Source: an uncultured Myxococcales bacterium (lineage in GTDB: Bacteria; Myxococcota_A; UBA9042; CAIXZC01). Taken from it: 64,000 nt of DNA. Under the pieces are notes generated by a model. That model ran no database searches. It saw only the letters and a list, made by a program, of their open reading frames with translations, and was not told the DNA's origin. Of this stretch, positions 1 through 21,441 are shown piece by piece (within the stretch, counting starts at the first letter, position 1; the number at the start of each line of letters is the position of its first letter). The translations under genes and the position numbers were made by a program. Location of the stretch: contig CAZFVN010000002.1 of assembly GCA_964522395.1 (NCBI GenBank), positions 43,644 through 107,643 of the forward strand, given 5' to 3'.

Positions 1-1
1 T

Positions 2-508
2 GAAGTGGTGGCTTGTGGTACCGAATCCCTCAACACGGGGGTGCTGGAGCCCGGGACCTATTACTTGATTGTCGATTCCAATGGCAATCTCCACAAGGGT
101 GACTTCTCCATGACTGTGGTGCCGTCGCCCCCTGATGCGCCTGACAATGACTCATGTGCGGCTCCTCAGCAGCTTATCTTCCAGAACAACATGTCCCAGG
201 CCAGCGGCATGACGCTCTTTAGTAATGACCTTTCCTCCGCACCATGCGGGGGGGCGGGAGCGCCAGAGAATGTCTTCACATTCGTGGTACCTGCCGGCAC
301 TTCCAAGGCGAGCTTCAATGTCGACGCCGACTTTGATCCCGCCATCTATATCGTGCTGGGAGATTGCAACGGGGCACCGGTGGCCTGTGTTCCAGCCGCC
401 AGCTATGACATGGGCTGGCCGGGGCAGGGCACCTACTACCTCTTCGTTGATGGCAAGACGGCCAACGACAAGGGGCTTTATACGTTGACTGTGACACTCA
501 CCCAGTAA
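2..508 (+). CDS. 3' fragment (the last ~169 codons) of a further array paralog whose start lies upstream of the window. It encodes a C-terminal PPC-like domain.
   Basis: The in-frame translation EVVACGTESLNTGVLEPGTYYLIVDSNGNLHKGDF...GQGTYYLFVDGKTANDKGLYTLTVTLTQ aligns with the C-termini of the genes at 17282-21391 and 21442-25554. There is no start codon inside the window. Confidence 0.85.
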   Translation, partial: EVVACGTESLNTGVLEPGTYYLIVDSNGNLHKGDFSMTVVPSPPDAPDNDSCAAPQQLIFQNNMSQASGMTLFSNDLSSAPCGGAGAPENVFTFVVPAGTSKASFNVDADFDPAIYIVLGDCNGAPVACVPAASYDMGWPGQGTYYLFVDGKTANDKGLYTLTVTLTQ

Positions 509-523
509 TTTGGGGGATTTTGG

Positions 524-3500
524 ATGCGTAGAATCGGATTCTTCTCAAGCCTACTCGTCTTGTTGCTTTCTCTTTCAGCCCAGGCTTCGGTCCCGGCGGC
601 TCTCTCCTACCAGGGTTTTTTGACAGACTCGGTGGGTAACCCCGTAACGGGGACCTGGACAGTTACCTTCGGCCTGTACGCAGGGCCGTCGGGGGGCGAG
701 GTGCTCTTTGAAGAGTCCCTCGATGTGACCACCGACAAGGGCCTCTTCAGCGTCTACCTGGGTACTCCGGATAATCCTCTGCCGGTAGGGTCATTTAAGG
801 CGGGGGAGCTCTTCCTGGAGCTGACAGTTGAAACCGATGATGGTCCAGTAGCGCTGACTCCCCGCCAGCAAGTAGTGTCGGACCCCTACGCCCTCTATGC
901 CCAGGATGCTGCTCAATTGGGCGGAGAGGATGCCGAAGCATTCGTCTTGCTGCAGCAATTGCCCGATCTCTGCGTCACGCCCGAAGCGCTGCCCGATGTG
1001 CTTGCAGAGTTGGGCATCGTCGGCGGTGGGCTGGACGAGGAGGCGCTGGCCGCCTGGCTGCTGGTCAACGGGTACAATGCCTGCGCTTGCTACGCAGACG
1101 ACAATGTCGCCAACTATCTGGCCGCGGCGGGCTATGAGCCTGGACCCTACTTCACTGGTTTGTACGAAGACCTTGTTGATTCTCCCGATCTCTCTATCTA
1201 TATGACGTCGGAAGATGTGGCAGCAGCACTCGCCAGCCTTGGGGCGGTACTTCTGGCCGACGGTTCCGTGGCCCTTGAGGGTGATTTTGATTTTGCTGGT
1301 TTTCAGGCTCTTAATCTGGCGGTGCACAATTCTGTAGACCCGCCCGCTGACCCTGCTGCCGGACAGCTTTGGTGGGATCTCAACCAAGTGATATTGAAGG
1401 TCTACACAGGGGAGGGATGGTCTGGCATCGGAGCTGGCGTGGCTGCCGATATTGCCTGTCCGGAGTGTGTAGATGCGGATGACGTTGCCTTTACCTTCGC
1501 AGCAGCCGATCAAAAGGGCGGCGCGGCGCTCAACGTGAACTGCTTCCAGTGCATCAACGGGGACGAGGTCAACTTCGCCTGGGCCAAAGGTGTCGAACCT
1601 GGGGGCGATGCTGAGCACGCCCTCACTGCGGATACCGCTTTGAACGCTGAGAAGGCCGCTGATCTGGAGTGTCCCGGCTGTGTCGATGTCGCTGACATCA
1701 ACCCTGTGGCCCTTGCTTCGGGCGTGGTTTCTTTTGATGATTCCAAGGCGAAATTGGGTGCGGCAACTGCCCAGGAGGCCTTTGAGAAGTTAGCCGCCAG
1801 TGGCGGTTCCGGTGCCGTAGAGGGTAACGGCACCATCATCTCCTATGTCGAGCAATGGGGATTGTCTGCCTACGGCTCTGCAACTACCTACATGCACCTT
1901 ATGAACCCGGCGTCACCCAAGGTGCTGATGCATCTCTATGCAGACGATTCAGCGAGCTTCGCTTCCTCGAACAACCTGGTAGTGGCATATGCCTTCGCCC
2001 CCAATCAGTATTCCGCTGGGGCCATGGGCAACCAGGGGGAGAACGCGCTGCAGGTGGGCAATCCCAGTACTTTCAACAGTGGCAGTCATATCATGATTCA
2101 TCAGACCCGGGGCAGTGATGGAGTCAGCGCGGGCACCTGGGAACTGAACCAGGTGAAGTCGGTAAACGGCTCGACCCTTCATCTGATAAAGCCGTTGGCC
2201 AACGACTACGTCACGGGTGGTTCAGCCAAAGCTCAGGTCGTACTGGCGGCTTCCTTCGGCAATGTTGAAATTGTTAACGGCGGCACCCTCAAGCCTTCTA
2301 TGGCACTCGCTGTGGATGGCTCCATGGGCGGCATTGTCTATGTTCGAGCCAACAAGATGACCGTCAAATCGGGCGGACGCATCGACGCGGATGGCATGGG
2401 CTTCCAGCCTTCGCCGGGGGGGTACTTCGCTCCCGGTTCGTCGGAGTGCGGAGTTGGTATTCCTGGCGAATCCGAGCAGAATTGCTCGGGGGGCGCCGCG
2501 GGTGCGATCCAATGTGCCAATGCAGGCGGTGGTGGCAACAAGGCCGCCGGGCAAAACGGCACCAACCACGGCAACTGTGCCACCGAAACGGAAGGCGGTG
2601 CGGCCAAGGGTGATGGCAATCTCAATACTCTGGAGTTTGGCGGCGCCGGCGGCACTCAGTTCGCCGGGGGCGGAGCTGGCGGCGGTATCGTAGTTATCGG
2701 CGCCCAGTCTTTTGTGGTACAGGATGGCGGCAAGGTCTCGGCAGATGGTTCTGTGGCCACAGACCGCGGTTCCGGTGGTGGCGCCGGCGGGACCATCGCA
2801 CTCTACGCAGATTTCCACCAGTTGGACGGTGAGGTGACGGCTGCAGGCGGCAAGGGTGGTGAAGTCCTGCAATGGAAGCATATCGAACCCAAACCCCTCA
2901 CTCCCGTTACTTTCAATACACGCTCCCACGGCGGGGGCTATAGTCCGAAGTATTTGGAATTCTGGTATCCGCATTGGTCGGGGTCGACTATCTACCGGTA
3001 TGACAGGAACTATACTCCCCTTGGTGATTTCACTTCTGGCAACAATAACATGATGCAACTCTGGGGCGATCCCGATGGCACCTACTACACTGCCAACTAC
3101 GGACAGGACCGAATACGGAAGTGGTCTGACAAGGGCAACAGCCAGATCTGGGAGTACTACAACGGCGGCACCACCAATGGTGTCTGCGCGGACGAAGACT
3201 ACGTCTATGCCATGCGCAGTAGCGGCAATGAGGTAAGGAAGCTCAACAAGACTACCGGCCAGCATGTCCAGACCTTCACAATATCGAACACTTCCAGCAC
3301 CGATGGCGCGCTACTGTGCACTCCAGGAAGGCTCTATTACGGTCGCACAGATGGCACTGTCTACTACCACGATACTTCCTCACATCAGCAACTTGGCTCA
3401 TTCTCCGCCGGTACAAATATCCACAACATGTCCTTTGACGGGCAGATCATGTACGTCTCGCCAAACTCGAGCACGGTTTCACGGATCCAACTCATAGAGG

Positions 3501-4624
3501 GGAACATCTACGAACCGGCAGGATCCGGCGGCGATGGCGGCGAAGGCTGGGTTGTGGAGAAGAGCCCCAAGGCCGGTATCATCAATGAATCCTATCCCAA
3601 GGGCATCCAGATCTGGATCGACGGAGAAGATGTCACCACCCAGGTAGGGGACCCCAACGGCAAGGGCAGTCCATCCTGGGATGCCCAGAACGGCATGTGG
3701 GGCAAAGATGGATTGGAGTCCTGGTCGACAGGGCAACTCGATCTGACCTCCGTTGCCAATTGGACGCTGGGTGAACACGCGATCCAGGTGAAAGAGACCG
3801 GCGGGGCGGGTGGAGATGTGAAGATGTTTGCCTACGTGGTCTATCCCTTCACCAAATCTGTAGCTCCAGTAAATGATACTTGTGACCAGCCGGTGATGCT
3901 CGACGTTTCTGACGCGGTAACCGTGACGGGTACCACGGAAGATGTCATGGGTAAGATCAAGGCAACTGATGCCAACACCGGGCCGTTCTGTGGCGGTTCG
4001 GGTGGTTCGGATGTGACCTACGGTTTTGTCTTGGACGACTGGCGCAGCCTGAGTATTTCGACGGTCTCTGCATTTACCCCCCGGGTCTACTTGCGCAAGG
4101 ACAGTTGCGCGGATGGCCAGGTGGTAGCGTGCGGTTCCAACCTCATCGATACCGGAGTCCTGGAACCGGGGACCTATTTCCTGGTGGTCGATTCCGATGG
4201 CAATTTGCAAAAGGGCAACTTCTCGCTGACCATTGTGCCCTCACCGCCCGACGCGCCAACCAACGATTCCTGCGCCATGCCCCAGCAATTGGTCTTCCAG
4301 AACAATGTTGCCAAGGCCAGCGGCATGACTCTTTTTTCTAACGACCTTTATTCCGCCGCGTGTGGTGGGGATGGTGCGCCGGAGAATACCTTCACTTTCG
4401 TGGTGCCGCCTGGAACTTCGAAGCTGGATATCGATGTCGACGCAGACTACGACCCGGTTATCTACATGGTCAAGGACAACTGCGAAGGGGGGCTGATAGC
4501 CTGCATTCCAGACAGTTCCTACCAGATGGGCTGGCCGGGACCGGGGACCTATTTCCTCTTCCTGGATGGCAAGACAGGCAATGACAAGGGGCTCTATGAG
4601 TTGTCCGTGAGCCTGGTGCAATAG
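524..4624 (+). CDS. Array paralog A, long form, 1366 aa. Secreted multidomain protein: conserved N-terminal domain, Gly-rich beta-helix-like core, beta-propeller-like insert, 2x C-terminal PPC-like domains.
   Basis: Uninterrupted ORF. Sec signal peptide MRRIGFFSSLLVLLLSLSAQA|SVPAAL. Conserved mature N-terminus AALSYQGFLTDSVGNPVTGTWTVTFGLY. GGAGGTQFAGGGAGGGIVVIGAQS glycine-rich repeats. C-terminal GTYFLVVDSDGN / DADYDP / GTYFLFLDGKT motifs typical of bacterial pre-peptidase C-terminal domains. Confidence 0.85.
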   Translation: MRRIGFFSSLLVLLLSLSAQASVPAALSYQGFLTDSVGNPVTGTWTVTFGLYAGPSGGEVLFEESLDVTTDKGLFSVYLGTPDNPLPVGSFKAGELFLELTVETDDGPVALTPRQQVVSDPYALYAQDAAQLGGEDAEAFVLLQQLPDLCVTPEALPDVLAELGIVGGGLDEEALAAWLLVNGYNACACYADDNVANYLAAAGYEPGPYFTGLYEDLVDSPDLSIYMTSEDVAAALASLGAVLLADGSVALEGDFDFAGFQALNLAVHNSVDPPADPAAGQLWWDLNQVILKVYTGEGWSGIGAGVAADIACPECVDADDVAFTFAAADQKGGAALNVNCFQCINGDEVNFAWAKGVEPGGDAEHALTADTALNAEKAADLECPGCVDVADINPVALASGVVSFDDSKAKLGAATAQEAFEKLAASGGSGAVEGNGTIISYVEQWGLSAYGSATTYMHLMNPASPKVLMHLYADDSASFASSNNLVVAYAFAPNQYSAGAMGNQGENALQVGNPSTFNSGSHIMIHQTRGSDGVSAGTWELNQVKSVNGSTLHLIKPLANDYVTGGSAKAQVVLAASFGNVEIVNGGTLKPSMALAVDGSMGGIVYVRANKMTVKSGGRIDADGMGFQPSPGGYFAPGSSECGVGIPGESEQNCSGGAAGAIQCANAGGGGNKAAGQNGTNHGNCATETEGGAAKGDGNLNTLEFGGAGGTQFAGGGAGGGIVVIGAQSFVVQDGGKVSADGSVATDRGSGGGAGGTIALYADFHQLDGEVTAAGGKGGEVLQWKHIEPKPLTPVTFNTRSHGGGYSPKYLEFWYPHWSGSTIYRYDRNYTPLGDFTSGNNNMMQLWGDPDGTYYTANYGQDRIRKWSDKGNSQIWEYYNGGTTNGVCADEDYVYAMRSSGNEVRKLNKTTGQHVQTFTISNTSSTDGALLCTPGRLYYGRTDGTVYYHDTSSHQQLGSFSAGTNIHNMSFDGQIMYVSPNSSTVSRIQLIEGNIYEPAGSGGDGGEGWVVEKSPKAGIINESYPKGIQIWIDGEDVTTQVGDPNGKGSPSWDAQNGMWGKDGLESWSTGQLDLTSVANWTLGEHAIQVKETGGAGGDVKMFAYVVYPFTKSVAPVNDTCDQPVMLDVSDAVTVTGTTEDVMGKIKATDANTGPFCGGSGGSDVTYGFVLDDWRSLSISTVSAFTPRVYLRKDSCADGQVVACGSNLIDTGVLEPGTYFLVVDSDGNLQKGNFSLTIVPSPPDAPTNDSCAMPQQLVFQNNVAKASGMTLFSNDLYSAACGGDGAPENTFTFVVPPGTSKLDIDVDADYDPVIYMVKDNCEGGLIACIPDSSYQMGWPGPGTYFLFLDGKTGNDKGLYELSVSLVQ

Positions 4625-4670
4625 CGCAGCAAACCGGTGCGGGCTGAGTGTCCGCCGGTGAGGGGTGACG

Positions 4671-7600
4671 ATGAAAGCAAGATGGGTAGTTGGAATCTCG
4701 GCAGCATTGGCAGTTTCTTTCATTCTGTTGCCCTCGATGGCAGTTCGCGCGGCCGCTCCAGCGGCGCTTTCATACCAGGGCTTTCTAACCGATTCGGTGG
4801 GCAATCCCGTGACCGGTACCTGGACGGTCTCGTTTGGTCTGTACGCAGAGCCATCAGGGGGGGAAGTGCTCTTTGAGGAGTCCCTCGACGTGACCACCGA
4901 TAAGGGTCTCTTCAGCGTCTACCTGGGTACCCCGGACAATCCTCTGCCGGTGGGCTCGTTTGAGGCAGGAGAGCTCTTTCTTGAGCTGACAGTTGAAACT
5001 GACGACGGTCCGGTGGCACTGACTCCGCGTCAGCAAGTCGTTTCAGACCCTTATGCCCTTTATGCCCAGGATGCTGCCCAGTTGGGCGGTGAGGATTCTT
5101 CATCATACGTGCTGCTCCAACAGTTACCGGACATTTGCATCACTCCTGAGGCATTGCCCGACGTTCTTGCTGAGTTGGGGATTGTTGGCGGTGGACTTGA
5201 TGAAGAGGCGCTGGCCGCCTGGCTGCTGGCCAATTCCTTTGTGGATGAGGCATTACTTGCGGCCTGGCTGCTGGACAATGGATATGACCCCTGTGCCTGT
5301 TACGGAGACGAGGGTGTGGCCGCTTACCTGGCCGCCGAGGGATTCGTCGCCGGTCCCCATTTCTCGGGGTCCTACGACGACCTGATGGATGCCCCCGATC
5401 TCTCCGGCTTCATGACCGCCGACGACATTGCCGAGGCCCTCTCCAATCTGGGTGCGGTGCTTCTCGCCGATGGGTCTGTAGCCCTCGAAGGCGACTTTGA
5501 TTTTGCCGGTTTCCAGGCCCTCAATCTGGCGGTGCACAATTCCGATGAGCCGCCGCTGGAACCGGTTGCCGGACAACTCTGGTGGGACCTAAACGAGGTT
5601 CTCTTGAAGGTCTACACCGGCGAAGGCTGGTCTGGCATCGGCACTGGTGTAGCGGCTGACATCGCCTGCCCTGAATGTGTGGATGCTGATGACGTGGCTT
5701 TCACCTTTGCTGCGGCCGACCAGAAGGGTGGTGCGGCGCTCAACGTCAACTGCTTCCAGTGTATCAAGGAAGAGGAAGTGAGCTTCGCCTGGGCCAAAGG
5801 CGTTGAGCCAGGCGGGGCGGCGGAGCATGCAGTCGTCTCCGATACTACCCTTGATGTGGCCTGTCCCGGCTGCGTCGATGTGGCCGATATCAATCCTGCA
5901 GCCCTCGCTTCGGGCGTGGTTTCCTTTGATGACTCCAAAGCCAAATTGGGTGCTGCAACTGCACAGGAGGCCTTCGAGAAGTTGGCGGCGGTTGGGGGCT
6001 CAAGTGCGGTGGAAGGCAACGGCACCATCGTTCCCTATGTCGAGCAATGGGGGCTTCCCGCATATGGCTCGGCCACGACCTATCTTCATCTCATGAACCC
6101 GGCTTCGCCAAAGGTGCTGATGCATTTGTATGCCGACGATTCGGCCAGCTTCGCGTCTTCCAATAATCTGGTCGTCGCCTACGATTTCGCCCCCAACCAG
6201 TATTCGGCCGGGGCCATGGGCAATGTCGGTGAGACCGCCTTGCAGGTTTCCAATCCCAGTACCTTCAACAGCGGTAGTCACATCATGATTCATCAGACCT
6301 GGGGCAGTGACGTTGCAACGGCCGGTACCTGGGAGCTCAATCAGGTGAAGTCGGTGAATGGCACGACCCTACATTTAATCAAACCGCTGGCCAATAGTTA
6401 TGTCACGGGAGGTGGCGCCAAAGCGCAGGTTGTGCTGGCCGCGTCGTTTGGCAACGTCGAAATCGTTAATGGCGGGACGCTCAAACCATCCCAACCTCTG
6501 GCGTTGGATGGCTCCATGGGTGGCATCGTCTATGTGCGGGCCAACAAGATGACCGTCAAGTCCGGTGGTAGAATCAATGCTGATGGTGCCGGTTTCCAAC
6601 CGACTCCAGGGGGCTATTTTGCCCCCGGCTCGTCAGAATGTGGCGTTGGGACCCCCGGCGAATCCGAGCAGAACTGTTCGGGTGGTGCGGCCGGTGCGGT
6701 GCAGTGTGCCAATGCCGGTGGCGGCGGCAATAAGACGGCGGGTCAAGACGGTACCGTCCACGGTGATTGCGAAGCCCAATCCAAGGGTGGTGTGGCCAAG
6801 GGTGACGCCAACTTAGGTACCCTTGAGTTTGGCGGAGCTGGCGGCACACAGTTTGAGGGCGGAGGAGCTGGCGGCGGTATCGTCGTCATCGGCGCCCAGT
6901 CTTTCGTGGTCCAGGATGGCGGTAAGGTTACGGCCGACGGGATCGCAGCTTCCGACCGCGGCTCGGCTGGCGGCGCCGGTGGAACTATCGCTCTCTACGC
7001 AGATTTCCATCAGTTGGACGGCGAAGTCATCGCTGAAGGTGGCGACGGAGCTGTAGTCAAGCAGTGGACCTACATTGAACCCAAGGCTCTCGGTACAGTG
7101 AATTTCGATACTCATTCCCACGGTGGCGGATATAGCCCCAAGTATAGGGAGTTCTGGTACCCGAAATGGGGGTCGAAGACCATCTACCGGTTCAACCTCG
7201 ACTACGAACCGCTGGGAACTTTTGATAGCGGTAACAATGATATGATGGGGTTCTGGGGTGACACGGACGGCACCTATTACACGGCCAACTGGGGCCAGGA
7301 CAGAATTCGTAAGTTCTCGGACAAGGGCGCCAGCCAGATCTGGGAGTATAGCCTCGGCTCCACCGCCGGCGCGGTTTGCGCCGATGAGAACTACGTCTAT
7401 GGCATGCGCCATGGTGATACAACGGTGTGGAAGCTCAACAAAGATACTGGGCAGCAGGTCGATACGTTCGCCTTGTCCGGTGCAAATAGTGCCTACGATT
7501 CGCTCATCTGTGCACCCGGGAGGTTCTACTACGGGCGCACCAACGGGCAGGTATATATCTACGACTCCAACTCGCATGGGCAGATTGGGAGTTTCAACGC

Positions 7601-8816
7601 AGGCATCAGCATTGATAGCGTAGCTTTCGACGGTCAGGTGATGTACGTCTCTCCGAACACCAGTACAGTGACCAGGTTCCAACTGGTGGATGGCAACGTC
7701 TACGAGCCAGCCGGTTCCGGTGGTGATGGTGGCGACGGGTGGGTAGTAGAGAAGACTCCTATTTCTGGGATCATTAATGAATCATATCCAAAGGGCATCG
7801 AGATCTGGATTGACGGAGAGGAAGTCACTGAGCAGGTGGGCGATCCCAATGCCAAGGGAACTCCGGCCTGGGATGTTGCAACCAACAAGTGGGGTAAGGA
7901 CGGTTTAGAGGCTTGGTCTACGGGGCCCCTGGACCTTACGTCGGTTGCTAACTGGACCCTGGGCGAACACTCCATCCAGGTGAAAGAGACTGGCGGCGCG
8001 GGTGGCGACGTCAAGATGTTCGCCTATGTCATCTATCCCTTCACCAAATCGACGGCTCCCGTAAACGATACTTGCGACCAGCCGGTGATGCTTGACCTTT
8101 CGGATGCGGTGACCGTTTCTGGCACCACTGAAGATATCATGGGCAAGGTCAAGGCTACCGATGCCAATACCGGACCGTTTTGTGGTGGTTCGGGTGGTTC
8201 GGATGTGACCTACGGGTTCACCCTCACTGACTGGCGCAGTCTGAGCATTGCGGTCACCTCCGCCTTCACGCCAAGGGTCTATTTGCGCAAAGACTCTTGC
8301 GCCGATGGTCAGGTGGTGGCGTGCGGGACAAACCTCATTGATACCGGGGTGCTGGAGCCGGGGACTTACTATCTGGTGGTAGATTCCGATGGCAACATGC
8401 AGAAGGGTAATTTCAGCCTGACCGTAGTGCCATCACCACCTGACGCCCCCGGCAATGACTCGTGTGCCGGGCCACAACCAATGATCTTCCAGAACAACAC
8501 TGCCCAGGCCAGCGGCATGACTTTTTTCTCTAACGACCTCTACTCGGCCGCGTGTGGTGGAGCCGGGGCGCCAGAGAACATCTTTACCTTTGTGGTACCG
8601 CCCGGGACGTCCAAACTGGATATCAATGTGGATGCCGACTACGACCCCGCCATCTACATGGTCAAGGATGCCTGCGAAGGCGCACTTATTGCGTGCATTC
8701 CAGACAGCACCTATCAGATGGGCTGGCCGGGACCGGGGACCTACTTCCTCTTCTTGGACGGCAAAACCGCCAACGACAAGGGGCTCTACGAGTTGACCGT
8801 GAGTATCACTCAGTAG
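4671..8816 (+). CDS. Array paralog B, long form, about 1381 aa from ATG 4671. Secreted multidomain protein of the same family.
   Basis: The ORF track starts at a GTG at 4665. The ATG at 4671 gives MKARWVVGISAALAVSFILLPSMAVRA|AAPAAL and lies after GAGGGGTGA. About 90% aa identity to paralog A over the N-terminal ~450 aa, with many synonymous differences. Confidence 0.8.
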   Translation: MKARWVVGISAALAVSFILLPSMAVRAAAPAALSYQGFLTDSVGNPVTGTWTVSFGLYAEPSGGEVLFEESLDVTTDKGLFSVYLGTPDNPLPVGSFEAGELFLELTVETDDGPVALTPRQQVVSDPYALYAQDAAQLGGEDSSSYVLLQQLPDICITPEALPDVLAELGIVGGGLDEEALAAWLLANSFVDEALLAAWLLDNGYDPCACYGDEGVAAYLAAEGFVAGPHFSGSYDDLMDAPDLSGFMTADDIAEALSNLGAVLLADGSVALEGDFDFAGFQALNLAVHNSDEPPLEPVAGQLWWDLNEVLLKVYTGEGWSGIGTGVAADIACPECVDADDVAFTFAAADQKGGAALNVNCFQCIKEEEVSFAWAKGVEPGGAAEHAVVSDTTLDVACPGCVDVADINPAALASGVVSFDDSKAKLGAATAQEAFEKLAAVGGSSAVEGNGTIVPYVEQWGLPAYGSATTYLHLMNPASPKVLMHLYADDSASFASSNNLVVAYDFAPNQYSAGAMGNVGETALQVSNPSTFNSGSHIMIHQTWGSDVATAGTWELNQVKSVNGTTLHLIKPLANSYVTGGGAKAQVVLAASFGNVEIVNGGTLKPSQPLALDGSMGGIVYVRANKMTVKSGGRINADGAGFQPTPGGYFAPGSSECGVGTPGESEQNCSGGAAGAVQCANAGGGGNKTAGQDGTVHGDCEAQSKGGVAKGDANLGTLEFGGAGGTQFEGGGAGGGIVVIGAQSFVVQDGGKVTADGIAASDRGSAGGAGGTIALYADFHQLDGEVIAEGGDGAVVKQWTYIEPKALGTVNFDTHSHGGGYSPKYREFWYPKWGSKTIYRFNLDYEPLGTFDSGNNDMMGFWGDTDGTYYTANWGQDRIRKFSDKGASQIWEYSLGSTAGAVCADENYVYGMRHGDTTVWKLNKDTGQQVDTFALSGANSAYDSLICAPGRFYYGRTNGQVYIYDSNSHGQIGSFNAGISIDSVAFDGQVMYVSPNTSTVTRFQLVDGNVYEPAGSGGDGGDGWVVEKTPISGIINESYPKGIEIWIDGEEVTEQVGDPNAKGTPAWDVATNKWGKDGLEAWSTGPLDLTSVANWTLGEHSIQVKETGGAGGDVKMFAYVIYPFTKSTAPVNDTCDQPVMLDLSDAVTVSGTTEDIMGKVKATDANTGPFCGGSGGSDVTYGFTLTDWRSLSIAVTSAFTPRVYLRKDSCADGQVVACGTNLIDTGVLEPGTYYLVVDSDGNMQKGNFSLTVVPSPPDAPGNDSCAGPQPMIFQNNTAQASGMTFFSNDLYSAACGGAGAPENIFTFVVPPGTSKLDINVDADYDPAIYMVKDACEGALIACIPDSTYQMGWPGPGTYFLFLDGKTANDKGLYELTVSITQ

Positions 8817-8818
8817 TT

Positions 8819-8935
8819 CTAATGGGTGAGGCAAACGATGGGTACGAAGGGAGTGGGTGGAGCAAATGGGCGAGGCAAATGGGTGAGGCAAGTGGGTGAG
8901 GCAAACGATGGATACGAAGGGAATGGGAGAGGCAC
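8819..8935 (+). repeat. Local tandem duplication of the inter-paralog leader motif, with about 4 copies of GGGTGAGGCAAA-like 12-mers.
   Basis: GGGTGAGGCAAACGATGGGTACGAAGGGAGTGGG occurs at about 8824-8858 and again at about 8894-8928 as ...GATGGATACGAAGGGAATGGG. Intervening copies are TGGGCGAGGCAAA and TGGGTGAGGCAAG. Confidence 0.7.
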
Positions 8936-8937
8936 AA

Positions 8938-11900
8938 ATGGCTAGAAGGCACATCACAGTTGGGCTCACTATCGCAGTATTGGCGCTGACGTGCTTCTCG
9001 CCCTTTTCAGCGCAAGCGGCTGCACCCGCTGCTCTCTCCTACCAGGGGTTCTTGACCGATTCGGTGGGTAACCCGGTGACAGGTACCTGGACAGTGACTT
9101 TTGGACTTTATGGGGAGCCCTCGGGAGGGGACTCGCTCTTCATGGAGTCATTGGATGTGACTACTGACAAGGGGCTCTTCAGTGTCTATCTAGGAACTCC
9201 GGACAATCCGCTTCCGGTGGCTTCATTTGAAACCGGCGAGCTCTTTCTTGAGTTGACGGTGGAGACCGACGATGGCCCCGTTGTGCTGACGCCGCGCCAG
9301 CAGGTAGTGTCGGATCCCTACGCCCTCTATGCCCAGGATTCTGCGCAACTCGGCGGTGAAGATTCTTCATCGTACGTGCTGCTCCAGCAGTTGCCGGACA
9401 TATGTATCACCCCCGAGGCCTTGCCCGACGTTCTGTTGGAGCTGGGAATTACGGGTGGCGGACTGGACGAGGAGGCCCTGGCCGCCTGGTTGCTGGCCAA
9501 TTCATTTGTGGATGAAACCTCTCTTTTGTCCTGGCTCCTGGAAAACGGGTATGAGACTGGTTCGCACTTCTCGGGTCTATACGAGGATCTCATCGATGTT
9601 CCTGACCTCGCCGGCTTCATGACGGCGGAAGATGTGGCCGAGGCCCTTGCTGCCCTGGGTGCGGTGTTACTGGCCGATGGCTCGGTGGCCCTCGATGGGA
9701 ATTTTGATTTTGCTGGCTTCCAGGCACTCAATCTGGCCGTACACAATTCCTTGGAGTCCCCGGAAGAGCCTGTAACCGGTCAGCTCTGGTGGGACCTGAA
9801 CGAGTCGCTGCTGCGGGTCTATACCGGCCAGGCGTGGTCTGGTATCGGCACGGGTGTAGCGGCAGATCTTTCTTGTCCCGAGTGCGTCGAGGCTGATGAT
9901 GTGGCCTTCACTTTCGCCGCGGCTGACCAGAAGGGCGGTGCGGCGCTCAACGTCAACTGCTTCCAATGTATCAGCGAAACTGAAGTGAACTTCGCCTGGG
10001 CCAAGGGGGTTGAGCCTGGCGGTGATGCCGAGCACGCGCTCACTGCCGACACGGCAACCAACGCGCTCACTGCGGACACAGCGGCGGATGTAGATTGTCC
10101 CGGCTGCGTTGATCTCGCAGACGTCAATCCCGCAGTCCTCGTTTCCGACGTCGTCGCCTTTGATGATTCGGTAACCAAGTTGGGGGCCAATACCGTCCAG
10201 GGGGCCTTTGAGAAACTGGCTGCTGTGGGCGGCTCCAGTGCGGTGGAGGGCAATGGCACCATCGTGCCCTACGTCGAGCAATGGGGACTTCCTGCATACG
10301 GGTCAGCCACGACTTATCTGCACCTGATGAACCCGGCTTCGCCAAAGGTCCTGATGCACCTTTATGCTGATGATTCGGCCAGCTTTGCCTCCTCCAATAA
10401 TCTGGTAGTGGCCTATGACTTTGCCCCAAACCAATACTCAGCCGGGGCCATGGGTAACCAGGGGGAGACTGCGCTTCAGGTGGGCAATCCCAGCACTTTC
10501 AACAGCGGCAGCCACATCATGGTGCACCAGACCACCGGAGATGACGGTATTACTGCCGGTACCTGGGAACTCAACCAGGTGAAGTCGGTGAACGGCTCGA
10601 CGCTGCATCTGATCAAGCCTCTCGCTCACGGTTATGTCACAGGGGGAAAGGCCAAGGCGCAGGTCGTGCTGGCGGCCTCCTTCGGCAATGTCGAAATCGT
10701 CAATGGTGGGACGCTCAAACCCTCTTCGCCGCTAGCGGTGGACGGCTCCATGGGCGGAATTGTCTATGTGCGGGCCAATAAGATGACCGTGAAATCCGGA
10801 GGTCGTATCAACGCGGATGGAGCCGGCTTCCAGCCCTCAGCGGGCGGCTATTTCGCCCCCGGTTCTTCGGAGTGCGGGGTTGGTACGGCGGGTGACTCTA
10901 AGCAGAACTGCTCGGGCGGGGCTGCCGGCGCTATCCAGTGTGCCAACGCTGGCGGCGGTGGCAACAAGACCGCGGGCCAGGATGGCTCCAATCACGGCAA
11001 TTGTGCCACTCAGACCGAAGGAGGAGCGTCCAAGGGTGACGGCAACCTCAATACGTTGGAATTCGGTGGTGCTGGTGGTACGCAGTTCGCAGGTGGCGGC
11101 GCGGGTGGTGGAATTGTTGTTATCGGGGCACAGTCTTTTGTAGTGCAGGACGGCGGCAAAGTCACGGCAGACGGAAAGTCGGCCAGCGACCGTGGCTCTG
11201 GTGGCGGTGCCGGCGGAACTATCGCACTCTTCGCAGATTTCCACCAGTTGGACGGGGATGTCTCCGCGGTTGGTGGCGAGGGTGGCGACGTGAAGCAGTG
11301 GAAGTATATTGAGCCTAAGCAACTGACTCCGGTCTCCTTCAATACCCGCTCCCATGGTGGTGGCTATAGCCCCAAGTACCTGGAGTTCTGGTACCCGGAG
11401 TGGTCGGGTTCGACCATCTACCGCTATAGCAGGGAATACGCTCCCCTCGGTGATTTTGCCTCGGGAAACGATCACATGATGCAACTCTGGGGCGACCCTG
11501 ACGGCACCTACTACACGATCAATTGGAGCCAGGACCGGGTGCGGAAATGGTCGGACAAAGGGGACAATCAGTTATGGGAGTACAATATCGGCAGTACCGC
11601 CGGGGCTGTTTGCACCGACGAAACCTACGCCTACGCCATGCGGCACAGCGGCAACGATGTGTGGAAGCTGAACAAGGCCACGGGCCAGCACGTGCAGACC
11701 TTCTCACTGAACAACACGGCAAGTATCTACGGTGGCCTGGTCTGTACTCCGGGGCGCCTCTACTACGGGCAGTCGGGTGGCAGTGTCTATATACACGACT
11801 CATCATCGCATCAGCAATTGGGCTCGTTTACGGTGGGCACCAGCATCAACAATATGTCCTTCGATGGTCAGGTAATGTACGTTTCGCCCAACTCCAGTAC

Positions 11901-13050
11901 TGTAACCCGCTTCCAACTCGTTGACGGCAATATCTACGAGCCGGCCGGGTCGGGTGGTGATGGTGGCGAAGGATGGATTGTCGAGAAGGCCCCAATGGCG
12001 GGAATCATCAATGAATCATACCCAAAGGGTATCGAGATTTGGGTAGATGGTGACGAGGTAACGCCGCAGGTGGGTGACCCCAACGCTAAGGGCACACCCG
12101 CTTGGGATGCTGCGACTCAGAAATGGGGCAAGGACGGCTTGGAAGCCTGGGCTACCGGTCCCCTGGACCTTACTTCGGTTGCCAATTGGACGCTAGGCGA
12201 GCACTCGCTGCAGGTGAAAGAGACGGGTGGTGCCGGTGGCGACGTCAAGATGTTTGCTTATGTCATCTACCCCTTCACCAAGTCGAGCGCCCCGGTAAAT
12301 GATACTTGCGATCAGCCGGTGATGCTGGACCTCTCAGATAGTGTTACCGTTGCCGGTACAACCGAAGATGTGATGGGCAAGATCAAGGCAACCGATGCCA
12401 ATACCGGGCCCTTCTGCGGCGGCTCGGGTGGAGCGGATGTTACCTATGCCTTTGTCCTGGATGATTGGCGGAGTATAAGCATTTCAGTGACTTCTGCCTT
12501 CGTCCCCAGAGTCTACTTGCGTAAGGACAGTTGTGCCGATGGTCAGGTCGTAGCGTGCGGCACCAGCCAAATCGATACAGGAGTGCTGGAGCCGGGGACC
12601 TACTATCTCGTGGTAGACTCAGACGGCAATATGCAGAAGGGGAACTTCACTCTCACCGTTGTGCCTTCGCCCCCAGATGCTCCAGGCAATGACTCGTGCG
12701 CCGGACCGCAGCAGATGGTCTTCCAGAACAACGTTGCCAAAGCCAGCGGCATGACGCTTTTTTCTAACGACCTCTACTCCGCTGCGTGTGGCGGGGATGG
12801 TGCACCAGAGAACATCTTCACGTTCGAGGTGCCGGCTGGCACTGCCAAACTGGATATCGACGTCAGCGCTGATTTTGACCCCACCATCTATATGGTCAAG
12901 GGTAACTGTGATGGCGTTCTTATCGCCTGCATCCCAGACAAGACATATCAGATGGGCTGGCCAGGGCCGGGGACCTATTTCCTCTTCCTGGACGGCAAGA
13001 CCGCAAACGACAAGGGGCTCTACGAGTTAACGGTGACCCTGACGCAATAG
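8938..13050 (+). CDS. Array paralog C, long form. Secreted multidomain protein.
   Basis: The ORF is open from 8896. The probable start is ATG 8938 (MARRHITVGLTIAVLALTCFSPFSAQA|AAPAAL), which gives a canonical signal peptide. The in-frame extension MDTKGMGEAQ is possible, so the start is uncertain. Confidence 0.75.
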   Translation: MARRHITVGLTIAVLALTCFSPFSAQAAAPAALSYQGFLTDSVGNPVTGTWTVTFGLYGEPSGGDSLFMESLDVTTDKGLFSVYLGTPDNPLPVASFETGELFLELTVETDDGPVVLTPRQQVVSDPYALYAQDSAQLGGEDSSSYVLLQQLPDICITPEALPDVLLELGITGGGLDEEALAAWLLANSFVDETSLLSWLLENGYETGSHFSGLYEDLIDVPDLAGFMTAEDVAEALAALGAVLLADGSVALDGNFDFAGFQALNLAVHNSLESPEEPVTGQLWWDLNESLLRVYTGQAWSGIGTGVAADLSCPECVEADDVAFTFAAADQKGGAALNVNCFQCISETEVNFAWAKGVEPGGDAEHALTADTATNALTADTAADVDCPGCVDLADVNPAVLVSDVVAFDDSVTKLGANTVQGAFEKLAAVGGSSAVEGNGTIVPYVEQWGLPAYGSATTYLHLMNPASPKVLMHLYADDSASFASSNNLVVAYDFAPNQYSAGAMGNQGETALQVGNPSTFNSGSHIMVHQTTGDDGITAGTWELNQVKSVNGSTLHLIKPLAHGYVTGGKAKAQVVLAASFGNVEIVNGGTLKPSSPLAVDGSMGGIVYVRANKMTVKSGGRINADGAGFQPSAGGYFAPGSSECGVGTAGDSKQNCSGGAAGAIQCANAGGGGNKTAGQDGSNHGNCATQTEGGASKGDGNLNTLEFGGAGGTQFAGGGAGGGIVVIGAQSFVVQDGGKVTADGKSASDRGSGGGAGGTIALFADFHQLDGDVSAVGGEGGDVKQWKYIEPKQLTPVSFNTRSHGGGYSPKYLEFWYPEWSGSTIYRYSREYAPLGDFASGNDHMMQLWGDPDGTYYTINWSQDRVRKWSDKGDNQLWEYNIGSTAGAVCTDETYAYAMRHSGNDVWKLNKATGQHVQTFSLNNTASIYGGLVCTPGRLYYGQSGGSVYIHDSSSHQQLGSFTVGTSINNMSFDGQVMYVSPNSSTVTRFQLVDGNIYEPAGSGGDGGEGWIVEKAPMAGIINESYPKGIEIWVDGDEVTPQVGDPNAKGTPAWDAATQKWGKDGLEAWATGPLDLTSVANWTLGEHSLQVKETGGAGGDVKMFAYVIYPFTKSSAPVNDTCDQPVMLDLSDSVTVAGTTEDVMGKIKATDANTGPFCGGSGGADVTYAFVLDDWRSISISVTSAFVPRVYLRKDSCADGQVVACGTSQIDTGVLEPGTYYLVVDSDGNMQKGNFTLTVVPSPPDAPGNDSCAGPQQMVFQNNVAKASGMTLFSNDLYSAACGGDGAPENIFTFEVPAGTAKLDIDVSADFDPTIYMVKGNCDGVLIACIPDKTYQMGWPGPGTYFLFLDGKTANDKGLYELTVTLTQ

Positions 13051-13092
13051 AGTAGCAACCGGTGTGGACTCAAAGCCGCACCAGAGGAGTTG

Positions 13093-16000
13093 ATGATGAA
13101 AGGAAGACTAGCACTGGCAATCTCGGCAGCGATGTTGGCAAGCTTGGCGATGTTGCCGTTGGCAGCTCAGGCTGCGGCCCCTGCGGCCCTCTCTTACCAG
13201 GGCTTCCTGACCGATTCAGTTGGTAACCCGGTGACGGGGACGTGGACAGTGACCTTCGGACTCTACGCTGAGCCTTCGGGAGGCGATGCCCTCTTCCAGG
13301 AATCATTGGATGTGACCACCGACAAGGGGTTGTTCAGCGTCTATCTGGGTACTCTGGACAATCCTCTGCCGTTGGCTGAGTTTGAAACCGGGCAGCTCTT
13401 TCTGGGCCTGACCATTGAGACTGATGATGGGCCGGTGGCGTTGACACCAAGACAGCAGGTGGTGTCGGATCCCTATGCCCTCTACGCCCAGGATGCCGCG
13501 CAGCTTGGTGGGGAAGACGCGGCTGCGTTTGTCTTGCTCCAGCAGTTGCCTGACCTCTGTATTACACCCGAAGCTCTGCCTGATGTCCTGGCAGAGTTGG
13601 GTGTCGTGGGTGGCGGTCTGGACGAAGCGGCGCTTGCTGCCTGGCTTCTCGTAAATGGCTACAACCCTTGCGCCTGTTATGCCGATGATAATGTGGTCGA
13701 CTATCTGGCTGCAGCCGGGTACGAGCCCGGCCCCTATTTCTCCGGCCTCTATGACGACCTCATTGACGCCCCTGACCTCGCCGGTTTCATGACGGCCGAG
13801 GACGTTGCCGATGCCCTCAGCAATCTAGGTGCGGTGCTCCTGGCAGATGGCTCAGTGGCGCTGGAGGGAGATTTCGATTTCGCCGGCTACCAGGCCCTCA
13901 ATCTGGCAGTACACAACTCACTTGAACCACCTGCGGAGCCGGTCGCCGGTCAACTTTGGTGGGACCTTGCCGACGGTCTGCTGAAGGTCTACACCGGCCA
14001 GGCATGGTCGGGGATTGGCACCGGCGTGGCTGCGGACATAGCCTGTCCCGAATGCGTGGATGCAGATGATGTGGCCTTTACCTTTGCGGCCGCTGACCAG
14101 AAAGGTGGCGCGGCGCTAAATGTGAACTGTTTCCAGTGTATAAGTGAAACCGAAGTCAACTTCGCCTGGGCCAAAGGCGTTGAGCCCGGTGGCGATGCCG
14201 AGCATGCCCTCACCGCGGATTCGGCCCTGACGGCCGATAAGGCCATTGACGTGGAGTGTCCTGGGTGTGTCGGCCTCTCGGACATCGACGCTGCTGCCCT
14301 GGCCTCAGAAGTTGTCAGCTTCGACGATTCGAAAACCAAGATTGGGGCACAAACGGTGCAGGGGGCCCTTGAAAAGTTGGTCGCCAGTGGTGGCAGCGGG
14401 GCTGTTGAAGGCAATGGCACCATCGTCCCCTATGTCGAACAATGGGGTCTTCCCGCTTACGGCTCGGCAACTACTTACCTGCATCTGATGAACCCAGCTT
14501 CACCCAAGGTACTGATGCACCTCTACGCCGATGACTCGGCCAGCTTCGCGTCATCAAATAACCTCGTTGTTGCGTATGCCTTTGCGCCCAACCAATACTC
14601 GGCTGGAGCCATGGGCAATGCGGGGGAGACCGCGCTGCAGGTGGCCAACCCCAGTACCTTCAACAGCAGCAGCCACATCATGATTCATCAGACCCGGGGT
14701 GATGACGGAGTCGTCGCGGGTACCTGGGAACTCAACCAGGTGAAGTCGGTGAACGGCTCAACCCTCCATTTGATTAAGCCCTTGGGCAACACCTATGTCA
14801 CCGGCGGCTCTGCTAAGGCCCAGGTAGTGCTGGCGGCGTCCTTCGGCAATGTGGAGATTGTCAACGGCGGAACCCTCAAGCCGTCTTCACCGCTGGCGCT
14901 GGATGGCTCCATGGGCGGCATCGTTTACGTGCGAGCGAACAAGATGACCGTGAAGTCGGGCGGTCGTATTGACGCGGACGGGATGGGCTTTCGGCCGACC
15001 CCAGGTGGTGACTTCGTCCCCGGTTCTTCAGAGTGTGGTCTTGGCACCGTCGGTGACTCCAAACAAAACTGCTCAGGGGGGGCTGCAGGCAAGTGGCCAT
15101 GTGGGAATGCTGGGGGTGGTGGCAATAAGTCCGCAGGCCAGAACGGCTCGGATCATACAGGTTGTCCAATTGAAACTGAGGGTGGTGCAGCTAAGGGCGA
15201 TGCGAACCTCAATACGCTTGAGTTCGGAGGTGCCGGAGGCACTCAATTCGCAGGCGGCGGCACCGGGGGTGGCATTGTGGTCATCGGGGCCCAGTCGTTT
15301 GTTGTTCAGGACGGCGGTAAAGTCTCGGCAGACGGTATGGCGGCCACCGATCGAGGTTCCGGCGGTGGGGCCGGTGGGACCGTAGCGCTCTTCGCAGACT
15401 TCCATCAGTTGGACGGCGAAGTAACGGCCACGGGTGGAATTGGCGGGGAAGTGGTGACGTGGAGTTTCATTGAGCCAAAGGCTCTTGAGTCCGTCTCCTT
15501 CAATACCCATTCCCATGGTGGCGGCTATAGTCCCAAGTACCTGGAGTTCTGGTACCCACAGTGGTCTGGGTCGACCATCCACCGTTATGACATCGATTAT
15601 GTGTCGCTCGGGACGTTTGCCAGCGGCACCAGCGATATAATGGGTCTCTGGGGAGACACGGACGGCACCTACTACACCGCCAACTGGGGTCAGGACAAGG
15701 TGCGCAAGTTCTCGGACAAGGGCAGTGACCAGATCTGGGAATACGGTTTGGGTACCACAGCCGGTGCTATTTGCTCCGACGAGAACTATGCCTATGCGAT
15801 GCGGCACGGCGGTGACACGGTGTGGAAGCTCAACAAGGATACTGGACAGCTCGCCGAGACCTTCTCTTTGCCCGGAGCGAACAGCATTACAGGTGGTTTG
15901 GTTTGCACTCCGGGGAGGTTCTATTATGGCACCGACAGTGGGACGGTGCGTATCTACGACGCTAACTCTCATCAGCAGATCGGTAGCTTCAACGTTGGCA

Positions 16001-21391: not shown

Positions 21392-21441
21392 TCTCAGTGG
21401 GTGAGGCAAAAGATGAATGTGAACAGGATGGGTGGTTATTC
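21392..21441 (+). promoter_or_regulatory. E/F junction leader. It holds GGGTGAGGCAAAAGATG and an 11-codon +1-frame uORF (21413-21448, MNVNRMGGYSC) overlapping the main ATG at 21442.
   Basis: Read directly from the sequence. The same motif order as the D/E junction. Confidence 0.5.

Follow-up and report, generated by a model that had tools for sequence, protein, structure and literature searches.

Organization of the array and its proteins

The stretch of DNA analysed here (the window, 64,000 nucleotides) contains within positions 1-40076 ten complete tandem paralogous genes, designated A to J, and the tail of an eleventh. All of them lie on the forward strand and are 63-76% identical at the nucleotide level, including the segment at 5-508, which is the 3' end of the upstream copy Z3 and corresponds to the '5' fragment' of the initial annotation. 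Copies A (524-4624; 1366 aa), B (4665-8816), C (8896-13050), D (13090-17211), E (17282-21391) and F (21397-25554) are of a long form, and copies G (25564-29187), H (29197-32811), I (32817-36488) and J (36495-40076), the last of the array, are of a short form, which confirms the long/short division made at the outset. Using the same contig in public assemblies, the whole array is found to comprise 13 copies, nine long and four short: positions 13218-19496 of the contig L024 correspond to window positions 1-6279 at 100% identity, and the further copies Z1 (1273-5391), Z2 (5405-9496) and Z3 (9580-13725) precede them on L024. All 13 are full length, each with its own ATG, a Shine-Dalgarno-like site and a signal peptide. 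Two genes on the reverse strand (40123-42993), encoding a 651-aa protein without a Pfam match and a 246-aa TPR protein, close the array and are conserved likewise at the end of the arrays in two other genomes, and hence these arrays are syntenic, with copy numbers of 13 here as compared to at least ten and at least nine in the others. Genes neighbouring the array are rich in MopE, TSP3 and LTD.

The array genes are predicted to encode large secreted proteins resembling fibres or adhesins. A structural model, which is a monomer prediction built from copy J, suggests an N-terminal beta-sandwich followed by a poorly modelled region of about 330 residues with short helical repeats and conserved Cys motifs, then a beta-sandwich and a beta-helix body, an optional five-bladed beta-propeller restricted to the long copies and, lastly, two beta-sandwiches similar to collagen-binding domains. 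In copy A, the 5' region that turns out to be prone to exchange covers 590-1699, the propeller insert 2864-3520 and the 3' region 3521-4621. Residues 119-450 have a pLDDT below 50 in this monomer model, which would be compatible with an oligomeric shaft. The C-terminal region is modelled with pLDDT values of 77-91 as a tandem beta-sandwich fold resembling the s3a-s3b domains of ColG, whose tandem collagen-binding domain (5iku) is the top Foldseek match in the PDB (E=2e-8, probability 1.00), while the beta-helix matches tailspikes and also phage and viral structural proteins. The description of the C-terminal domains as PPC-like thus holds at the level of the fold and not at that of Pfam detection: neither PPC (PF04151) nor any other usable Pfam domain was found in three copies at E<=0.1 or in two copies at E<=10, with an irrelevant WND match (E=0.12) as the sole Pfam match at E<=10, and a profile search of PDB sequences returned only a spurious WW-domain match.

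Detectable relatives number 74, every one of them from metagenomes. The NCBIfam model Bdello_MAT_N (NF053851) matches all ten copies of the window at 39-42 bits (E~1e-10) with a curated cutoff of 60 bits, and such scores suggest N-terminal modules that are related or convergent rather than membership of that family. The N-terminal model of AgmC (NF047640) matches the Gly-rich central region of all copies at 64-68 bits (E~1e-18) with a cutoff of 275; assignment of the copies as AgmC orthologs was rejected, since this score is far under the cutoff and the similarity covers the repeat-rich region only.

A block with a variable number of helical units

The interval 960-1260, to which attention had been drawn, does include copy A's instance of a variable block, and the block proper occupies the narrower segment 1031-1159 of copy A and its equivalents in the other copies. 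Its unit structure and polarity, derived from 66 homologs, are those of a variable-number array of helical units of 15-20 residues with the pattern 'D.. (V/L)AA(W/Y)L..NG(Y/F)'. In the protein alignment, the three variants recur with precisely the membership originally proposed. Type I, 'LLVNGYN(A/P)CACYADDNV..YL.AAGYEPGP.F', has two units and is present in A, D (13618-13746) and E (17804-17932), as well as in Z2. Type II, with three units due to an extra 'ANSF.DE..L..WLL' unit together with 'DPCACYG..GVAAYLA.EGF', is carried by B (5196-5369), G (26128-26301), H (29761-29934), I (33411-33584) and J (37011-37184), and in the full array by all short copies plus B, Z1 and Z3. Type III, 'ANS(F/Y)VDET.L..WLLENGYE.G.HF', which lacks the Cys-containing unit, is found in C (9463-9576), F (21964-22077) and the orthologs of C and F.

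These groupings differ in what they can tell about exchange. The A/D/E grouping had been counted as evidence of recombination, but its two units are the unit count of distant homologs, so that it reflects a shared ancestral state and is by itself uninformative. The informative conflicts are C with F, and B (with Z1 and Z3) joining the short copies; in a tree of unit 3, B, Z1 and Z3 group with all short copies at 98%. The case of B is illustrated by its close ortholog P0007, which carries a type I block: in most windows of 50 aa the two proteins share 96-100% identity, which falls to 71-82% at the block. A search for a recent donor of the type II block of B found none, the candidates being 79-82% identical, and at this level of identity neither the donor nor the direction can be fixed. 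Moreover, identity dips at the block in all close ortholog pairs, and hence this block evolves fast regardless of exchange.

Conflicting histories of the 5' region and the body

Different parts of the genes follow different trees, which were built by neighbour joining (K2P) and by parsimony. In neighbour-joining (K2P) bootstrap analysis, the 5' region of about 1.1 kb (alignment nt 121-1200) joins D with E at 100%, C with F at 87% and G with H at 98%, whereas the remaining 3 kb or so (alignment nt 1201-4350) join E with F at 100%, separate A-D from the rest at 100% and join H with J at 94%, such that mutually exclusive splits each reach 100%. The 5' region of D (13177-14286) therefore groups with E and its remainder with A-C; E follows D in its 5' region, and F and Z3 in its body and 3' region (20288-21388); and F follows C in its 5' region and E in its 3' region (24451-25551). 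At the 3' end, the shared motifs are as originally listed, with LIVDSNGNLHKGDF and LSSAPCGG in the Z3 fragment, E and F, and LVVDSDGN(L/M)QKGNF and LYSAACGG in A-D. The claim of incongruent groupings is thus borne out for the block, whereas the long/short and the C-terminal groupings fit one and the same tree.

Inter-copy recombination is supported by each of several tests. The phi test gives z=-8.2 (p=0.001) on the alignment; restricted to third positions of all ten copies it is not significant (z=-0.46), because silent sites are saturated, whereas A-F alone give p=0.01. Quartet maximum chi-square places breakpoints at alignment nt ~1170-1330 (p<0.001), and in reciprocal Templeton tests, for which the trees of the partitions were chosen from the same data as tested, each partition rejects the tree of the other (p=9e-11 and 3e-21). 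Congruence of the per-segment phylogenies, which would have spoken against exchange, is decisively rejected.

The best-preserved tract in the window is shared by G (26322-26719, core 26530-26711) and H (29955-30352, core 30163-30344), with z=14.4 in a GENECONV-like scan and an identity of 89.4% over 398 nt and 93.4% over 182 nt as compared to 69.6% in the remainder. Silent-site identity between G and H shows the same contrast, 51% versus 35% (p=0.00035), and the silent sites of E and F also switch (p=0.027). D and E are 79.4% identical in the 5' region versus 69.2% elsewhere; for D-E and C-F the silent sites give only a trend (p=0.07-0.09) due to fourfold sites near saturation, and their 5' grouping is carried mainly by first and second codon positions and by indels. 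Trees from third positions alone retain G-H at 87% and the same-genome pairs of the relatives at 78-100%. From the GENECONV-like scan only pair-specific signals were used, namely that of G and H and that linking B, Z1 and Z3 to the short copies within the block; a signal at alignment nt ~1590-2080, shared by many unrelated pairs, was treated as an artefact of a conserved region and not as conversion. The longest exact match between copies in this genome is 50 nt (E 21314 / F 25477), and no recent conversion tract, that is no exact match above 50 nt, was found between its copies. Exchange within this genome took place long ago and is not ongoing.

Concerted evolution in three arrays

Comparison of 30 copies, using the collinear arrays of two other metagenome genomes (X1 and X2), reveals which parts of the genes follow their orthologs and which follow their neighbours. 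In the body tree, orthologs from different genomes group together: (I, X1_9, X2_8), (E, X1_7, X2_6) and (F, X1_8, X2_7) each at 100%, and (J, X1_10, X2_9) and (Z3, X2_3) at 98%, with X1_10 and X2_9 joining J at 98-100% in body analyses. In the tree of the 5' region it is copies of the same genome that group, namely (X1_9, X1_10), (X2_8, X2_9) and (G, H) at 100% and (X2_2, X2_3, X2_4) at 98%, and in the 3' region (X1_7, X1_8) at 92%, (X2_6, X2_7) at 86% and (X1_2, X1_3) at 94%. The nearest neighbour is a paralog of the same genome for 21 of the 30 copies in the 5' region, 11 of 30 in the 3' region, 6 of 30 in the body and none of 22 in the propeller. Hence, the central body and the propeller insert track orthology across genomes, while the 5' and some of the 3' regions cluster within genomes.

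In the relatives, bounded tracts are still near-identical. X2_8 and X2_9 share 964 nt at 99.9% versus 63% elsewhere, and X1_9 and X1_10 share 671 nt at 99.6% versus 66% elsewhere, both bounded on either side by flanks of 50-84% identity (70-84% in the signal-peptide region, 50-60% in the body); runs of 917 (X2) and 587 (X1) consecutive identical nucleotides thereby connect paralogs otherwise about 65% identical. X2_6 and X2_7 share 305 nt at 96.4%, again with flanks in the range of 50-84%. The silent-site signal of the relatives is clear (p<1e-19), and several copies, such as X1_3 and X1_4, have more than one switch. A close relative has no D gene, and a D-like central segment is present in its orthologs of C; comparison with the closest relative (JGI 3300072015) was made at the protein level. 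This pattern across genomes, with similarity of paralogs within genomes, bounded tracts and incongruent segment phylogenies, is the classic signature of concerted evolution, seen here in three lineages and confined to one domain of a lineage-restricted secreted family.

Alternative explanations

The conflict might be explained with no exchange between copies at all, by recurrent independent slippage in a short repeat combined with parallel selection on the flanking protein residues. Being a short tandem repeat, the block is indeed prone to recurrent in-frame indels at its unit boundaries (..WLL.NGY / ..), its rapid evolution and the ancestral state of A, D and E, for which no event is needed, fit such a history, and the silent sites of D-E and C-F are weakly informative. 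However, the conflict extends past the block, with about 1.1 kb of flanking sequence switching tree, G-H and the same-genome pairs of the relatives persist in third positions, and neither slippage nor selection can yield the 917 and 587 consecutive identical nucleotides. As a full explanation this account is largely refuted already and we regard it as very improbable. Still less credit can be given to wrong joining of paralogs or strains during metagenome assembly. Every sequence does come from such assemblies, and the 917-nt perfect repeat of X2 exceeds the usual insert size of short-read libraries, which could leave its flanks mispaired; such mispairing would neither create the identity nor change the orthology of the bodies. 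The window itself is reproduced at 100% identity in an ENA scaffold of 154 kb and a JGI contig of 264 kb, which are independent assemblies, exact protein matches exist in databases for copies C-J, two further assemblies show this regional pattern again and, since no exact match between copies exceeds 50 nt, the paralogs of the window cannot tangle an assembly graph. Programmed variation, by silent cassettes feeding one expression site in the style of pilE/pilS, vlsE or msp2 or by a diversity-generating retroelement, would suit a set of numerous tandem genes for a secreted protein that exchange segments; it is highly unlikely given that all 13 copies are complete with no truncated cassettes, that near-identical donor and recipient tracts are absent from this genome and that body and propeller are orthologously stable. 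Furthermore, a scan of flanking genes revealed neither a reverse transcriptase (18 ORFs) nor an invertase or a recombinase, and the absence of exact inter-copy repeats above 50 nt makes a template/variable repeat pair unlikely.

Another possibility is that unequal crossovers, during expansion and contraction of the array, created the chimeras a single time at their junctions and that these chimeras have diverged since. The varying copy number of the syntenic arrays, the missing D gene of the close relative with its D-like C orthologs and the old age of the events in this genome are in line with such an origin, and the one junction between 5' region and body near alignment nt 1200-1330 suits a chimera made by one crossover for D, E, C and F. 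On the other hand, C and F are not adjacent, and the pairs C-F and D-E in the 5' region with E-F in the body are unlike any simple segmental duplication; duplication of a two-gene unit was rejected, since it predicts the pairs C-E and D-F and neither is seen. Multiple switches within several copies also argue against a one-time origin, and the tracts of the relatives are internal with divergent sequence on either side, which indicates conversion and not a single crossover. While crossovers of this kind probably contributed, they are refuted as the sole mechanism by these bounded internal tracts, and a purely crossover-born array is accordingly an unlikely, though not a far-fetched, account.

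Probable gene conversion with gain and loss of copies

Conflicting segment trees, clustering within genomes in the cross-genome comparison and bounded near-identical tracts together support interlocus gene conversion accompanied by gain and loss of copies through unequal crossing-over as the process that built this mosaic array, with block variants moved by short tracts; we assign this reading a probability of about 85%. The mosaic would thus arise from ordinary homologous recombination among members of the array, presumably of the RecA type. Non-reciprocal conversion would repeatedly overwrite the 5' region of about 1.1-1.2 kb and, at a lower frequency, the 3' region of about 1 kb, whole copies would in parallel be gained or lost through unequal crossing-over, and the central body and propeller would diverge while retaining orthology across genomes. 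Within the block, duplication of the first unit of the two-unit type I could have given type II, from which loss of the Cys-containing unit would give type III. Misalignment inside the repeat may alter the number of units, after which short conversion tracts would spread the variants between copies, the direction of transfer being an inference.

That tandem genes for surface proteins evolve by interlocus gene conversion and by birth and death is textbook knowledge, and so the mechanism contributes nothing new: it is the protein family that is new and uncharacterized, and the mechanism is ordinary. The array is among the larger intact tandem arrays of secreted proteins of more than 1200 residues. 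It exhibits an unusually clean split between a homogenized front end and an orthologously stable body, which coincides with a predicted domain boundary, and this division predicts a shared anchoring or assembly module on the one side and specificity-carrying parts on the other. Homogenization of the N-terminus may be tolerated or even favoured because it would serve as such a shared module, and the body and the propeller may be responsible for copy-specific binding.

A more far-reaching and rather doubtful proposal, built on analogy, is that the array constitutes, in a probably Myxococcota-like and uncultured bacterium, a repertoire of surface fibres comparable to the mosaic adhesive trimer (MAT) fibres used by Bdellovibrio in prey recognition. 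The N-terminal module of about 400 residues would then act in anchoring or oligomerization and be kept interchangeable by conversion, across long and short forms alike, such that different paralogs may share one docking site or even assemble together. Copy-specific binding would be left to diverging modules, namely the beta-helix body, the five-bladed propeller and the collagen-binding-domain-like tips, and the helical block with its variable number of units might adjust the length or the register of the shaft.

Comparison with known systems

Antigenic variation by cassettes is known from Neisseria pilE/pilS, Borrelia vlsE and Anaplasma msp2. The present array shares with these systems the segmental non-reciprocal transfer between paralogous surface-protein sequences and differs from them in having no expression site with silent cassettes, in the completeness of every copy and in the lack of recent tracts. 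Likeness to AgmC of Myxococcus and to the beta-helices of phage tailspikes consists in the Gly-rich central region and the modelled beta-helix, respectively.

A closer parallel is found in babA/babB/babC of Helicobacter pylori, which have homologous 5' and 3' parts and a divergent middle (Pride & Blaser 2002, as cited in PMC5483490). Both cases have segmental exchange, gene ends homogenized within a genome, a divergent central and presumably ligand-binding part, chimeric genes and a mechanism presumed to be RecA-dependent. By contrast, the array here has 13 adjacent genes instead of two or three dispersed loci, is without phase-variable dinucleotide repeats, carries old events and belongs to an unrelated protein family.

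The MAT fibres of Bdellovibrio bacteriovorus combine an invariant N-terminal domain with diversified distal domains, and 'tip swapping' is mentioned in the discussion of their description (PMC10769870). Like them, the array encodes a large repertoire of secreted fibre-like paralogs. Whereas the MAT proteins have an intertwined beta-prism and S74 or other tips, the model here shows a beta-helix body, which in the long copies is joined by a propeller, and then tandem collagen-binding-domain-like domains; moreover, the genes form a tandem array, and exchange affects the N-terminal part and not the tips. Should the family prove to be a repertoire of adhesins or fibres like the MAT proteins, the predicted division into a shared module and specificity-carrying parts would be a useful starting point.

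Array of tandem paralogs and its surroundings

The first 40076 nt of the window (1-40076, plus strand) are occupied by ten tightly packed and complete paralogous ORFs, namely copies A (524-4624), B (4665-8816), C (8896-13050), D (13090-17211), E (17282-21391), F (21397-25554), G (25564-29187), H (29197-32811), I (32817-36488) and J (36495-40076). Long copies A-F comprise 1366-1385 codons and short copies G-J 1193-1223, with a pairwise nucleotide identity of only 63-76%. None of the ten is truncated, and in each an SD-like motif lies ahead of the ATG, which opens a signal peptide with AxA at its end. The first 6279 nt of the window are matched at 100% identity by the end of an ENA scaffold (locus L024), and the first 2174 nt by that of a locus from a JGI contig (L022); together they reveal three further full-length long copies upstream, Z1, Z2 and Z3 (L024 1-13217). 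Thus, the array consists of 13 genes, nine long and four short, of which 10.1 lie inside the window, and this overlap identifies the fragment at 5-508 (+) as the 3' end of Z3. The extreme end of the ENA scaffold is a run of 51 C (L024 1-51), most likely a contig-end assembly or sequencing artefact. A motif GG(G/A)TGGTT(C/A)(A/G/T)(A/T)(T/C) ATG recurs directly 5' of the likely true starts of copies E-I (~17264-17281, 21424-21441, 25588-25605, 29221-29238 and 32871-32888), 31 codons before LSYQGF; ORF calls with GTG starts farther upstream in C and F-J are probably too long.

Upstream of Z1, the array start is preceded by a protein of 357 aa that carries a Dictyostelium-type Cys repeat. Directly after J, the minus strand encodes a 651-aa protein without Pfam match (40123-42078), followed by a 246-aa TPR protein (42253-42993); both genes keep this position in two other genomes and may encode accessory factors for the array. 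The genes in the flanks encode secreted proteins with MopE/TSP3 and LTD repeats as well as oxidoreductases of anaerobic type. The former are very large secreted-type proteins with abundant thrombospondin type 3 repeats and metal-binding MopE motifs, and a lamin-tail-domain protein (46609-51183 and 51047-53629, minus strand; 53337-56087, plus strand), a repertoire that fits a Myxococcota-like organism; the first two ORFs overlap by ~140 nt, and hence one start call is probably wrong. An operon-like run at 57221-62660 (+), with 2-oxoacid:ferredoxin oxidoreductase subunits, a thioredoxin-like [2Fe-2S] ferredoxin and NuoF-like and Fe-S subunits, suggests an anaerobic or microaerophilic host metabolism.

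Protein architecture

Array proteins have no match in Pfam. In all ten copies, the N-terminal ~160 residues score 39-42 bits against the NCBIfam Bdellovibrio mosaic-adhesive-trimer N-domain model (cutoff 60), and the Gly-rich centre 64-68 bits against the AgmC N-terminal model (cutoff 275). AlphaFold modelling of J (mean pLDDT 72.8) predicts with confidence an N-terminal beta-sandwich (27-117) and, from ~450, a beta-rich body with a beta-helix and two C-terminal beta-sandwiches, while residues 119-450, which hold helical units and invariant CxxC motifs, are poorly modelled. The PPC-like C-terminus proposed in the initial annotation stands at the fold level only, with the ColG tandem collagen-binding domains as the best PDB match, and is without Pfam support. 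The ~220-residue insert defining the long copies (2864-3520, 7056-7712, 11290-11946, 15451-16107, 19628-20287 and 23791-24450, plus strand) is, by a high-confidence prediction, a five-bladed beta-propeller (pLDDT 85.6), and its fold comes closest to that of bacterial and plant glutaminyl cyclases (TM 0.62-0.68). All copies contain an invariant Cys-rich stretch, 'CPECVDADDVAFTFAAADQKGGAALNVNCFQCI', and then a second CPGCV motif (in A ~1455-1560, aa 311-345); the stretch falls within the region with a poor monomer model and may be a shaft element stabilised by metal or disulfides. Among the viral structures in BFVD, the J model matches best a PA14-domain protein from a Bathycoccus prasinovirus (E=5e-24 across ~1000 columns, with low TM) and, next to it, numerous tail or structural proteins of phages, which hints at an overall architecture in common with viral fibres.

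Variable block near the 5' end

The three mutually exclusive block variants reappear in a protein alignment with exactly the memberships that had been listed, and so do the groups by C-terminal motif and the division into long and short copies. The interval 960-1260 originally assigned holds for the instance in copy A, where the variable block proper is narrower (1031-1159); in the other copies it lies at B 5196-5369, C 9463-9576, D 13618-13746, E 17804-17932, F 21964-22077, G 26128-26301, H 29761-29934, I 33411-33584 and J 37011-37184. Alignment of 66 family members resolves it into a short tandem repeat with units of 15-20 residues of the form x-D-x-x-(V/L)-A-A-(W/Y/F)-L-x-x-N-G-(Y/F), each predicted as a helix of about ten residues in the J model (153-162, 172-181, 187-196 and 207-216). 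All distant homologs covering the block, long and short, have two units, the second with C-x-C in most. Type I (A, D, E and Z2) keeps this ancestral number of units; in type II (B, Z1, Z3 and every short copy) the first unit is duplicated, and type III (in C and F and the orthologs of both) seems to be a type II block that has lost the C-x-C unit. Grouping of A, D and E, initially taken as a sign of exchange, therefore reflects a shared ancestral unit count, and what is informative is the conflict that joins C to F and the one that joins B, Z1 and Z3 to the short copies.

For the latter, a third-unit tree of the block (SPECIFICALLY) unites B, Z1 and Z3 and every short copy (98%), and a GENECONV-like scan flags their block against G-J (z 5-7). 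None of the 13 sampled long copies of X1 and X2, the arrays of two other metagenome genomes, has a type II block. In a closer relative, known from proteins only (JGI sample 3300072015), the B ortholog P0007 agrees with B at 96-100% across most windows of 50 residues, but has a type I block, where identity falls to 71-82%. Thus, one of the two lineages replaced just that patch since their split; no donor of B's block is identifiable in the genome, the best identity to type II copies being 82%. Block idiosyncrasies shared by long and short copies within single, more distant genomes (e.g. P0031 and P0047) fit an exchange between both forms.

Conflicting histories of gene segments

Incongruence exceeds chance and reaches far outside the block. 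Per-segment phylogenies, proposed as a check in the initial annotation, conflict among the ten window copies: in NJ bootstrap, alignment nt 121-1200 join D+E (100), C+F (87) and G+H (98), as opposed to E+F (100), ABCD versus the rest (100) and H+J (94) for nt 1201-4350; a further grouping, B+D (93), is specific to the propeller insert. The two partitions reject each other's trees in Templeton tests (p=9e-11 and 3e-21), and quartet site-pattern profiles change at nt ~1170-1330 (max-chi-square permutation p<0.001). Recombination detection, likewise proposed, was carried out as PHI and gave z=-8.2 (p=0.001), and p=0.01 for A-F at third positions only. The GENECONV-like scan singles out G/H (z=14), with G 26322-26719 and H 29955-30352 being 89.4% identical (182-nt core 93.4%) versus 69.6% in the rest of the gene.

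The family comprises 74 proteins, all from metagenomes or MAGs. X1 (ENA ERZ24794645 NODE_1071; at least eight long and two short copies) and X2 (ENA ERZ24794654 NODE_402; at least seven long and two short copies) are collinear with the window array and end at the same two downstream genes. In a codon alignment of 30 copies, the body groups cross-genome orthologs, with (I,X1_9,X2_8), (E,X1_7,X2_6) and (F,X1_8,X2_7) at 100% each, (Z2,X2_2) at 100%, and (J,X1_10,X2_9) and (Z3,X2_3) at 98%. The 5' region groups copies by genome, (X1_9,X1_10), (X2_8,X2_9) and (G,H) at 100 and (X2_2,X2_3,X2_4) at 98, and in the 3' region the E/F pair does so in all three genomes, (X1_7,X1_8) 92, (X2_6,X2_7) 86 and (E,F) 65. 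X1_3 (L025/L029) combines a Z3-type body (98%) and propeller (90%) with a 3' region clustering with that of its neighbour X1_2 (94%; 386 nt at 91.5%), hence conversion in the 3' region is not restricted to the E/F pair. A same-genome paralog is the nearest neighbour in 21/30 copies for the 5' region, 6/30 for the body, 0/22 for the propeller and 11/30 for the 3' region. Between close orthologs, no part diverges faster than the propeller (51-86% aa), which never clusters by genome. The conversion-prone 5' region ends roughly where the confidently folded body starts.

Nature and age of the exchanges

Near-identical tracts join X2_8/X2_9 (964 nt at 99.9%, with 917 consecutive identical bases, vs 63% elsewhere), X1_9/X1_10 (671 nt at 99.6% vs 66% elsewhere) and, in the 3' region, X2_6/X2_7 (305 nt at 96.4%). 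In the two short-copy pairs the tracts have divergent sequence on either side, and hence represent gene conversion rather than a single crossover. Third-position-only trees and fourfold-site counts retain G-H (51% vs 35%, p=0.00035) and the X1 and X2 short-copy pairs (p<1e-19), so that for these pairs the signal is not amino-acid convergence; for D-E and C-F the silent-site shift is a trend only (p=0.07-0.09), with fourfold sites near compositional saturation (about 0.42 observed vs 0.30 expected). A cassette-type antigenic variation system was rejected, as all copies are complete, and so was a DGR for the array, as no reverse transcriptase was found among the neighbouring genes scanned, nor was a recombinase. 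Segment trees, same-genome 5' clusters and bounded tracts support inter-copy recombination; the feature is real and the recombination reading correct. The process is a region-restricted concerted evolution by interlocus gene conversion in the 5' and partly the 3' gene parts, with an underlying birth-and-death turnover and an orthologous divergence of body and propeller.

Recent exchange was not seen in the window genome, where the longest exact inter-copy match is 50 nt, at the 3' end of E/F. In the other genomes, C orthologs and F orthologs alike have type III blocks, and hence this sharing is older than the divergence of these genomes. Copy number is 13 here versus at least ten and at least nine in the other arrays, and X1 and X2 lack counterparts of G and H. 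A close relative (JGI sample 3300072015; P0011 and P0013, proteins only) has the order A, B, C, E, F without D. Its C orthologs are a further mosaic, D-like in a central segment (beta-helix end and propeller) between C-like flanks, possibly tied to the D loss. The picture is one of long-running episodic conversion with copy gain and loss.

Comparison with known systems

Segmental conversion within surface-protein families is well known; the mechanism is thus ordinary, and the protein family is uncharacterised. Concerted evolution of whole genes is held to be rare in prokaryotes (PMC6053082). The closest architectural analogy is to the Bdellovibrio MAT fibres, whose N-terminal domain is invariant and whose tips are swapped (PMC10769870), without implying membership, since scores stay below the NCBIfam N-domain cutoff. 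The closest documented parallel to the array is the H. pylori bab family, in which the ends are homologous and the binding middle is divergent (PMC5483490).
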